Origin: Candidatus Saccharimonadota bacterium
Lineage (GTDB): Bacteria; Patescibacteriota; Gracilibacteria; BD1-5; UBA6164
Length of the DNA: 32,000 nucleotides
Direction of reading: 5' to 3'
Assembly (NCBI GenBank): GCA_004563595.2
Contig: CP042461.1
Span: forward strand, 810,001-842,000
Below the pieces are notes generated by a model that saw only the letters and a program-made list of their open reading frames with translations, made no database searches and was not told the DNA's origin. The position numbers and the translations under genes are program-made. Positions 27,464-27,596 of this stretch are shown here, one piece after another; position 1 is the first letter of the stretch, and each line of letters starts with the position of its first letter.

Positions 27464-27508
27464 AAGTTTTGACAAAGTTTTGACAAAGTTTAGAAAAAGT
27501 AATATAAT
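27464..27508 (+). promoter_or_regulatory. Consensus sigma70 promoter on the strand opposite to the R-M operon, overlapping three 11-nt direct repeats
   Basis: The repeats AAGTTTTGACA (27464-27474), AAGTTTTGACA (27475-27485) and AAGTTTAGAAA (27486-27496) are spaced one helical turn apart. TTGACA (27480-27485), an exact 17-nt spacer and TATAAT (27503-27508) follow. Confidence 0.6.
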
Positions 27509-27514
27509 ACTTGT

Positions 27515-27596
27515 ACTTAATTGGTCTTCATGATTTTTTTCATGAATCGACGCGAACTCCTCTTTAGATTTATCTGTAGAGGAGATTTTTTATTTT
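27515..27596 (+). ncRNA. Candidate ~80-nt small RNA, antisense to the mazF-like/hsdS intergenic part of the R-M operon transcript
   Basis: It starts about 7 nt after the consensus -10. Hairpin 1 pairs ttcatg (27527-27532) with catgaa (27541-27546). Hairpin 2 pairs ctcctct (27557-27563) with agaggag (27578-27584) and is followed by attttttatttt, giving an intrinsic terminator that is properly oriented only on the + strand. The 3' end overlaps the stop codon of the mazF-like gene (27590-27592). Confidence 0.45.

Follow-up and report, generated by a model that had tools for sequence, protein, structure and literature searches.

MazF toxins are, to our knowledge and in the literature that we searched, known only with protein antitoxins. 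Nuclease-type protein toxins that are controlled by an RNA antitoxin occur in the SymE/SymR and RalR/RalA systems; SymR overlaps the 5' end of symE and its Shine-Dalgarno sequence, RalA depends on Hfq and has its pairing site in the coding region, and 3'-end convergence is seen in neither. The EcoprrI hsd locus also carries, between its genes, a latent RNase toxin gene that codes for the anticodon nuclease PrrC, but PrrC is an ABC-ATPase-type nuclease and is held in check by restriction-modification (R-M) proteins, not by RNA. Here we describe a 32,000-nt stretch of the genome of a Candidatus Saccharimonadota bacterium, placed in the Gracilibacteria by GTDB (contig CP042461.1, positions 810,001 to 842,000; hereafter the window). 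Within it, a MazF-family endoribonuclease gene lodged in a Type I R-M operon is followed by a convergent small RNA (sRNA) gene, which we compared among homologous loci and consider, on balance, to be a dedicated RNA partner of the toxin and most likely its antitoxin.

In Type III toxin-antitoxin (TA) systems the antitoxin RNA is encoded as a tandem-repeat array upstream of the toxin gene, on the same strand and with a terminator between the two (PMC3401426). The toxin ToxN, which has a Kid/MazF-like core, binds its RNA ToxI via extra structural elements (PMC3401426).

A small RNA gene convergent with a MazF-family gene

The preliminary description of the window, made from its letters only, had read in it a discrete RNA of about 80 nt on the + strand, starting at an exact TTGACA-N17-TATAAT promoter that opposes the R-M operon and ending in two hairpins and a U-run found on that strand only, with its 3' end at the stop codon of the mazF-like gene. 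All of these elements are in place (Table 1). The promoter is the single exact match to this consensus in 32 kb on both strands (0.04 expected; at least one match in 4 of 100 shuffles), and would put the transcription start at A27515. The RNA from 27515 to 27596 folds with -24.5 kcal/mol (z = -4.7), compared with -19.6 kcal/mol for the - strand, where the U-run is absent. It overlaps the toxin stop codon (27590-27592) by 7 nt, and as the two genes are convergent with no terminator between them on the - strand, it is also complementary to the mRNA at the mazF-like/hsdS junction, as had been claimed. Taken alone, the statistics of the window are modest, and the real evidence is conservation in homologous loci.

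We traced homologs of the MazF-like protein (35-75% identity) to their contigs; the whole comparison covers about 15 distinct loci in one candidate phylum (numbered with L below); the named relatives are 'Candidatus Gracilibacteria'. A convergent sRNA gene stands right after the toxin stop codon in all 13 protein-anchored distinct loci that have enough downstream DNA, with its 3' end at -9 to +7 nt from the stop. RNAs of class 1, to which the window's RNA belongs, overlap the stop by 7 nt, and those of classes 2 and 3 end 2-9 nt short of it. In 16 of 16 sRNA genes exactly 6 nt separate the -10 hexamer (TATAAT in 10) from a conserved ACTT start, a U-run ends the RNA in 16 of 16, and the fold is better on the promoter strand in 16 of 16 (by a mean of -4.8 kcal/mol, p = 4e-4), where G.U pairs are concentrated. 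The -35 region reads 'A-tract + TTTG-N-A' across the sRNA genes, with a perfect TTGACA in the window only. Identity between RNAs is 86-93%, as against 54-72% at synonymous sites and 57-83% in flanking spacers (orphan RNAs, described below, included); for class 1 alone, 86-93% in the RNA compares with 57-80% in its promoter-side flank. A covariance model of class 1 has one match in the window, at 84 bits, the next best scoring 21 bits. The preliminary description had made its RNA depend on conservation of the promoter/terminator pair in homologous islands and had proposed a search for covariation in related loci. The pair is conserved, and among the 11 class 1 sequences 13 of 19 base pairs show double compensatory changes (2-5 in slid controls), with 93.7% of alignment cells able to pair (34-51% with slid partners). 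At the level of sequence comparison, the sRNA gene is thus shown to be conserved, structured, strand-specific and obligatorily linked to this MazF subfamily.

Were there no independent RNA gene, the hairpins would serve the 3' untranslated region (UTR) of the toxin mRNA as a stabilizer or terminator, or would be a scar left by recombination or insertion, and AT-rich DNA would have produced the promoter match by chance. The window indeed has no more promoter-like matches than shuffled sequence does (80 found, 81 expected), both strands fold significantly, and short tandem repeats are common there. We nevertheless find this account scarcely credible in view of the fixed distance of the -10 box, the U-run on the sRNA strand only, and the higher stability of that strand with its strand-specific G.U pairs–each of which holds for every one of the 16 genes–and because the mRNA strand has no U-run after the hairpins.

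A metagenome scan by RNA motif alone returned two genuine, low-GC matches, both with an adjacent convergent toxin gene; a third match is GC-rich and was rejected as chance. On genome contigs, a loose RNA pattern (17 specified bases, 31-length gap) gave chance matches only, in GC-rich genomes, and L129 and L203 were discarded as chance pattern matches. IMG/VR contained no true member by the loose pattern, the class 2 and class 3 patterns or the protein profile, and the PLSDB plasmids gave no match. No class has a match with E < 0.1 in Rfam 15, for the window or for six loci, the best window matches being to unrelated eukaryotic snoRNAs with E-values of at least 0.36. We also considered a small peptide encoded in the sRNA and rejected it: the frame is not conserved (box spacing 0, 1 or 2 modulo 3) and 4 of 11 RNAs have no ATG.

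The surroundings of the toxin and RNA genes vary. They are Type I R-M genes in the window, L009, L205 and L208, Type III R-M in L001, SNF2 and an Eco57I-type methylase in L209, ABC transporter/hydrolase genes in L002-4 and L006, mnmA/tRNA synthetase in L005, and SufBD in L206. In L002 (6561-6636) and L006 (1092-1155) the MazF-like open reading frame (ORF) has lost its stop codon (TAA to GAA) and reads 16-19 extra codons through the sRNA antisense, so that the RNA lies almost wholly within the coding sequence (CDS).

The repeats around the -35 box had been taken for an operator or iteron array. They are present at an 11-bp phase with the -35 box inside them (copies 100/100/88%; Tandem Repeats Finder period 11, 3.5 copies, score 62), and they make the second strongest of 42 short arrays found by that program in the window, which is notable, not unique, in 27% GC DNA. 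The repeats duplicate the -35 box, with the correct spacing to the -10 for the second TTGACA only. The array is absent in the closest orthologous loci (L009/L010, L011), the repeats at other promoters differ (3 x 12 bp in L208, 2 x 15 bp in L001/L202, none in 11 of 16), and duplicated -35-like boxes of other sequence and period occur in 5 of the 16 sRNA promoters. With sequence, number and phase all unconserved, the iteron reading finds no support, and the repeats look like a local duplication of the -35 box. The L208 array, three perfect 12-bp direct repeats (ATTTTTATGTCA) on the - strand at ~4690-4726, lies just upstream of the -35 of a class 3 sRNA; its sequence differs from that of the window's array and its TTGACA-like core has the opposite orientation. 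The palindrome that overlaps the window's first repeat makes a back-to-back TTGACT on the - strand, which with CATTAT at 27433-27438 is a possible weak hsdS promoter. A similar palindrome, TGCAAAA-AAG-TTTTGCA, stands at the same place in L001.

The protein is a MazF by several measures. Pfam PF02452 matches residues 70-167 with 48.3 bits (cut-off 23.1; E = 1.3e-12), and profile searches match Staphylococcus aureus and Bacillus subtilis MazF, and the MazF/EndoA chains 4MZM, 4MDX and 7BXY (E ~4e-5). For an AlphaFold2 model (predicted local distance difference test score 83, from a 47-sequence alignment) the top 50 Foldseek matches are all MazF, with best target-normalized template modeling scores of 0.81-0.84 and the N-terminus unmatched. 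R90 and P91 are invariant and T112 is found in at least 90% of 47 family members; in S. aureus and B. subtilis MazF their counterparts are the 'GVRP' and 'AIT' columns–that is, the Arg of the beta1-beta2 loop ('G-x-RP') and the Thr/Ser ('I-T') that we take to be the catalytic residues of MazF. Because these columns are conserved, the enzyme is probably active and would need neutralizing. Residues 1-70 form an N-terminal extension, a beta-hairpin and a long Lys-rich helix with the near-invariant HNLxNHIENFKEKIKINQQ, which is conserved across all toxin clades and all but absent from other proteins (7 fragments among 1.84 billion representatives), and for which we found no structural or family match.

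No locus has a conserved small ORF of MazE/PemI-like (AbrB- or ribbon-helix-helix-type) kind upstream or downstream of the toxin gene, whose upstream neighbors are hsdM, mnmA, an ABC permease or nothing. There is no ToxN-type match among the top Pfam and Foldseek matches, and the toxin matches no family of PADLOC 2.0 or NCBIfam at E 0.01 or better. Annotation pipelines label it 'type II toxin-antitoxin system PemK/MazF family toxin' and miss the RNA.

RNA classes and orphan RNAs

The RNAs form three classes that track three toxin clades. Toxins that share 54% or more identity with the window's toxin are accompanied by class 1, which has the form ACUUUAUUGGUC, variable hairpin, (A)UCGACRCGAAC, terminator hairpin, U-run. 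Class 2 (L014, L205, L206) goes with toxins 40-46% identical to the window's and has the form ACUUAGAUGUAACC, hairpin, UUGCGUCMURAC, hairpin, U-run, and class 3 (L208, L209), with toxins 35-38% identical, has the form ACUUAGAUGUAGC, UUCG-type hairpin, GUAGUGA, hairpin, U8. The 5' tail and basal helix are conserved and the loops and distal stems variable; the 5' 11 nt are invariant between classes 2 and 3 although their downstream folds differ.

The window contains a second sRNA gene, absent from the preliminary description, which is of class 3. Its promoter adjoins the start codon of the MazF-like gene (28166-28168), with the -10 box 6 nt before ACTT, and the RNA ends 5 nt before the hsdM stop codon (28272-28274) and runs antisense to the MazF-like gene's 5' UTR. 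With the class 3 RNAs that are cognate to the class 3 toxins of L208 and L209 it shares 92% identity, but no class 3 toxin lies near it, and we therefore call it an orphan; the same orphan is found in L009 and L012, at an orthologous hsdM. Orphan RNAs are, by comparison of their sequences, under purifying selection: their identity is 89-92%, while hsdM third-codon positions reach 54-70% and the adjacent spacer 62-83%. Because L208, with an orthologous hsdM and the same junction with the transfer-messenger RNA (tmRNA) gene, still has mazF3 followed by sRNA3, the layout of the window type is explained by loss of a class 3 toxin with its RNA kept.

L209 has an orphan of class 1 (3882-3961, - strand, 62.6 bits), which abuts a 3' remnant of hsdM of ~24-35 nt. 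The junction, TAGGGAATAAAAAA, is identical to the one at the window's hsdM end and suggests deletion of a toxin via short homology with the toxin's terminal 'GAATAAAA' codons. The count of toxins without an RNA is zero, and that of orphan-RNA events is two, independent of each other (class 3 in the window, L009 and L012; class 1 in L209) and each explicable by deletion of a toxin gene.

Other structured units were seen in some of these loci. Antisense units consisting of a hairpin and U-run lie in the spacer upstream of the toxin in L208 (~3895-3965, - strand) and L205 (~3900-3955, - strand); their sequences are unrelated to classes 1-3, and each directly adjoins the stop codon of the gene before the toxin (hsdM or hsdS). 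In L209, at ~3600-3720 on the - strand, a duplicated class 3-type promoter precedes, and appears to drive, a different structured RNA, which converges on a DUF3800 gene and is closed by a long stem (AAUCCUACU/AGUAGGAUU).

A candidate RNA antitoxin and its alternatives

The comparison leads us to favor, with moderate confidence, a reading in which the sRNA gene is genuine, is the dedicated partner and most likely the antitoxin of the adjacent MazF-family endoribonuclease, and probably acts in trans on the protein. The preliminary description had suggested that the RNA, convergent with the orphan toxin as in txpA/ratA, could be its antitoxin; comparative genomics favors the antitoxin and casts doubt on a purely antisense mechanism. 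The antitoxin role is favored because the RNA stays with the toxin gene in genomic contexts that are unrelated to one another, and because of an asymmetry that a toxin and its antidote would be expected to show: the toxin is never found without the RNA, while the RNA is sometimes found without the toxin. If the RNA is an antitoxin, direct binding to the protein is rather likely, and action as an antisense only is doubtful.

On this reading a strong constitutive promoter would keep the RNA in excess. The RNA would act in trans through its own conserved parts, the 5' single-stranded ACUU... segment and the invariant basal helix, and would most probably bind and block the MazF protein as a Type III antitoxin does, with the basic N-terminal extension as the candidate RNA-binding surface. 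As its gene is convergent and its 3' end lies over the stop codon, the RNA would also be fully complementary to the toxin mRNA 3' UTR, and duplex formation and RNase III decay may add a Type I-like effect, for which the invariance of the convergent geometry leaves room. Loss of the RNA supply, through shut-off of transcription in phage infection or loss of the locus, would free the RNase.

A pure cis-antisense mechanism, in the style of the Type I systems txpA/RatA or bsrG/SR4, would have the sRNA pair with the 3' UTR and stop region of the toxin mRNA and RNase III cleave the duplex, with no contact to the protein. The geometry suits it, since in every locus the two genes converge and the 3' end of the sRNA falls at or over the stop codon; transcription on the mRNA strand meets no terminator before it reaches the RNA gene and would run through the complement; a second antisense unit covers the toxin 5' UTR in the R-M-embedded loci; and the B. 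subtilis Type I systems work in this way (PMC6562991). Such pairing, however, needs no conservation of sequence, yet the RNAs are conserved beyond synonymous sites, in the 5' tail and basal helix and not in the loops, and orphans that have no cis target or cognate toxin mRNA are still under purifying selection. The complementary 3' UTR is 60-80 nt long (100-140 bp in the B. subtilis systems), the translation-initiation region shows no complementarity to the RNA, and the toxin is a 192-aa catalytic RNase and not a small hydrophobic peptide. Pairing at the 3' end would presumably also come too late to stop the first rounds of coupled, co-transcriptional translation of a 579-nt ORF. We therefore regard pure cis-antisense control as unlikely, and action on the protein is favored by the same conservation of the RNA, by its location in the 5' tail and basal helix, by the limits of a 3'-UTR antisense, and by the unique basic extra domain of the toxin, since extra elements are what ToxN uses to bind ToxI. 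A further candidate, pairing in trans between the sRNA and the translation-initiation region of the toxin, was rejected because it was no better than in shuffles (z -0.3 to +1.2).

The RNA could also be a partner of the MazF-like protein in another capacity–a cofactor, guide, sensor or preferred substrate that, for example, targets or gates the nuclease in phage infection, with 5' ACUU(A/U)... as a recognition or seed element. Linkage, co-variation of the classes and sequence conservation fit such a role equally well, the invariant 5' 11 nt of classes 2 and 3 would suit it, and a defense-island context is frequent. The occurrence of RNAs without the protein, and of no protein without the RNA, fits an antidote better than a cofactor, however; MazF enzymes are sequence-specific on their own, and we found no evidence for any trans target. 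A role of this kind seems to us improbable.

The preliminary description had offered a second idea, an antisense brake by which hsdS and hsdR expression would lag behind that of hsdM once the island reaches a new cell; as a timing device of the R-M operon, the RNA would lower hsdS/hsdR expression relative to hsdM. Two + strand sRNA units do oppose the operon, at the hsdM/mazF and mazF/hsdS junctions, 6 of ~15 loci are in R-M or defense contexts, and a weak promoter-like site precedes hsdS on the - strand. The same RNA class nevertheless accompanies the toxin at loci without any R-M system (L002-L006, L206), the order in L205 is hsdS-mazF-hsdM, so that hsdM would be braked instead, and it is the RNA sequence that is conserved, not merely a promoter and terminator. 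Because the RNA goes with the toxin outside R-M operons, and stands before hsdM in L205, the brake is largely refuted and we give it very little credence.

Several points weigh against an antitoxin that acts on the protein. The whole case consists of comparative sequence analysis of ~15 distinct loci from one candidate phylum, in which toxicity of the subfamily is an assumption based solely on its conserved catalytic residues. Any tightly linked pair would be expected to show RNA class and toxin clade inherited together, which by itself does not prove interaction. The invariable convergent, stop-abutting geometry is that of a cis-antisense RNA, and a protein-binding RNA has no need of it. Orphan RNAs might have gained a new role in cis, being antisense to the 5' UTR of the resident toxin in the window and L209, and the N-terminal extension may serve for autoinhibition or something else.

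A bolder version of the favored reading can be put forward tentatively. The module would then be of a previously unrecognized TA or abortive-infection kind, with a true MazF that has taken a single, structured, non-repetitive sRNA of ~65-80 nt in place of a protein antitoxin, bound via a lineage-specific N-terminal RNA-binding domain, and so would combine a Type I architecture with a Type III mechanism. There would be at least three mutually specific classes, orphan 'immunity' RNAs would be kept after toxin loss, and cassettes would be swapped at a tmRNA-linked Type I R-M island.

Genomic setting and relation to known systems

The window has a GC content of 27%. Under the bacterial code (table 11) its ORFs are short and fragmented, and long ORFs appear when TGA is read as sense. 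Because TGA occurs where glycine is invariant (in motif I of HsdM, DPTC-G-SGS, in the Walker A motif of HsdR, TT-G-S-G-KT, and in GFT-G-TP), we assign genetic code 25 (TGA = Gly; the Gracilibacteria/Absconditabacteria type). The earlier names mazF-like, hsdS and R-M operon hold with this code and not under table 11, in which the ORFs break up. Elsewhere in the window, a 746-aa ORF at 9601-11841 (- strand) has a type IV pilin-like N-terminus (FTLVELIVVITILAIL...) and one TGA at an expected conserved Gly.

Table 1. Features of the toxin, sRNA and R-M region, in window coordinates.
Feature	Position	Strand	Details
Restriction subunit gene hsdR, last gene of the operon	21994-24834	-	Pfam HSDR_N, SWI2_SNF2, T1R_D3-like, EcoR124_C
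Pentapeptide-repeat/multi-transmembrane ORF, 435 aa	24862-26169	-	Between hsdS and hsdR
Specificity subunit gene hsdS	26186-27412	-	Downstream of sRNA gene; Pfam Methylase_S 3e-34, two target-recognition domains
Perfect palindrome GTCAAAA-AG-TTTTGAC	27458-27473		Upstream of and overlapping first repeat; absent from preliminary description
Three 11-bp direct repeats (AAAGTTTTGAC twice and a degenerate copy)	27463-27500	+	27463-27478, 27474-27489, 27485-27500
Class 1 sRNA promoter	27480-27508	+	-35 TTGACA 27480-27485, 17-nt spacer, -10 TATAAT 27503-27508
Class 1 sRNA gene (predicted), ~75-82 nt	27515-27596	+	Two hairpins and U-run; starts 7 nt after -10 box
sRNA 5' single-stranded segment ACUUAA	from 27515	+	
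P1 hairpin	27521-27555	+	Conserved basal helix UUGGUC/GAC-G-CGA and variable distal hairpin
P2 terminator hairpin	27557-27584	+	
U-run	27585-27596	+	Overlaps toxin stop codon
MazF/PemK-family endoribonuclease gene, 192 aa	27590-28168	-	Code 25; MazF barrel aa ~71-181
Orphan class 3 sRNA promoter	28171-28198	+	TTTACT, 16 nt, TATAAT 28193-28198, then TTAGTT
Second sRNA gene (class 3, orphan)	28205-28266	+	ACUUGGAUGUAGC, hairpin, GUAUUGA, hairpin, U7
Type I R-M methyltransferase gene hsdM, operon gene 1	28272-29852	-	Pfam N6_Mtase 2e-114, HsdM_N
tmRNA (ssrA)	29962-30420	-	ARAGORN; flanks R-M block

The R-M block has a GC content of 0.21-0.25, compared with 0.27-0.31 in the rest of the window. The tmRNA gene that flanks it, ssrA, is a classic integration site of islands and is likely to be one here; the word 'island' in the preliminary description is reasonable on these two grounds. 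The tmRNA-hsdM junction is common to the window and L208 (where the tmRNA is at 1719-2178, + strand), and orthologs of the window's hsdM occur in L009 (90% identity), L208 (77%) and L012 (72%). This suggests a defense island at ssrA in which the cassettes between hsdM and hsdS vary by genome. The toxin and its RNA would, most likely, be a compact, mobile two-gene module, lodged in the window in the Type I R-M operon at the tmRNA locus. The ORF between hsdS and hsdR has pentapeptide repeats in its N-terminal part and then a multi-pass membrane region; it has no PADLOC match and may be a further defense-associated passenger gene.

At 29846-29953 on the + strand, a CTGACA-17-TATAAT overlaps the hsdM start codon, and a hairpin and U-run follow just before the tmRNA 3' end. 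We rejected this as a third antisense unit at the tmRNA/hsdM junction, as it is not conserved in L208 or L009 and its '-35' consists of the reversed start codons of hsdM. The hairpin is probably the tmRNA terminator, next to a coding-derived -35 look-alike.

A search of the literature on RNA partners of MazF, on TA systems of Gracilibacteria and on toxins in hsd operons found no description of this module. Judged from the sequences, it is most likely a TA module with an RNA antitoxin whose pairing of a MazF toxin with a non-repetitive convergent RNA has not been described before. If so, a MazF subfamily with an invariable sRNA partner would blur the boundaries between Types I, II and III, and the MazF fold would have been coupled to RNA antidotes more than once, ToxN being the other case. 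The module would also add a defense or addiction system to bacteria of the candidate phyla radiation (CPR); CPR genomes, here Gracilibacteria, largely lack CRISPR. In the CPR, R-M and abortive infection are considered the mainstay of immunity (PMC4742961). With two small and easily recoded genes it is a simple, testable system, and its RNA classes and orphans offer a natural experiment on antitoxin specificity and anti-addiction.

The module can be set beside each of the known types. With the Type II systems MazEF, PemIK and Kis-Kid it shares a toxin that belongs to the family by sequence, fold and the conserved Arg and Thr columns, but it has no MazE/PemI-like gene at any locus, an sRNA gene stands where that partner would be expected, and the toxin has an extra 70-aa N-terminal domain. 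With the 3'-overlapping Type I systems of B. subtilis (txpA/RatA, bsrG/SR4, bsrE/SR5, yonT/SR6) it shares convergent genes, complementary 3' ends and an sRNA with its own strong promoter and terminator (PMC6562991). It thus has the opposite-strand RNA complementary to the toxin mRNA that defines Type I, as a convergent complement of the 3' UTR, but not the small (<60 aa) hydrophobic peptide toxin, the protein being a 192-aa MazF-fold RNase that is predicted to be soluble. The B. subtilis systems have small hydrophobic peptides, overlaps of 100-140 bp and sRNAs of 180-220 nt; here the CDS overlap is ~7 nt, only the 60-80 nt of 3' UTR are complementary, and the RNA sequence is conserved beyond the needs of pairing.

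SymE/SymR and RalR/RalA differ in having toxin families unrelated to MazF. PrrC/EcoprrI shares with the window, L009, L205 and L208 an RNase gene placed within a Type I R-M operon, but the PrrC nuclease is unrelated, and the MazF-sRNA module is also found outside R-M operons. The Type III systems ToxIN, CptIN and TenpIN differ in that the toxin here is a true PF02452 MazF, by Pfam and Foldseek, and not a ToxN, CptN or TenpN, and in that the RNA is a single, non-repeated unit of ~65-80 nt with its own promoter, downstream of the toxin gene and convergent with it. The only tandem repeats here are those of 11 bp at the promoter, and they are not conserved. They are alike in their abortive-infection or defense-island flavor, in their specificity classes of cognate RNA and toxin, and in a toxin that carries extra elements beyond the MazF core, which in ToxN bind RNA (PMC3401426). 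In Type III systems an endoribonuclease with a Kid/MazF core is neutralized by a small structured RNA made in excess, as may be the case for this MazF and its convergent RNA.

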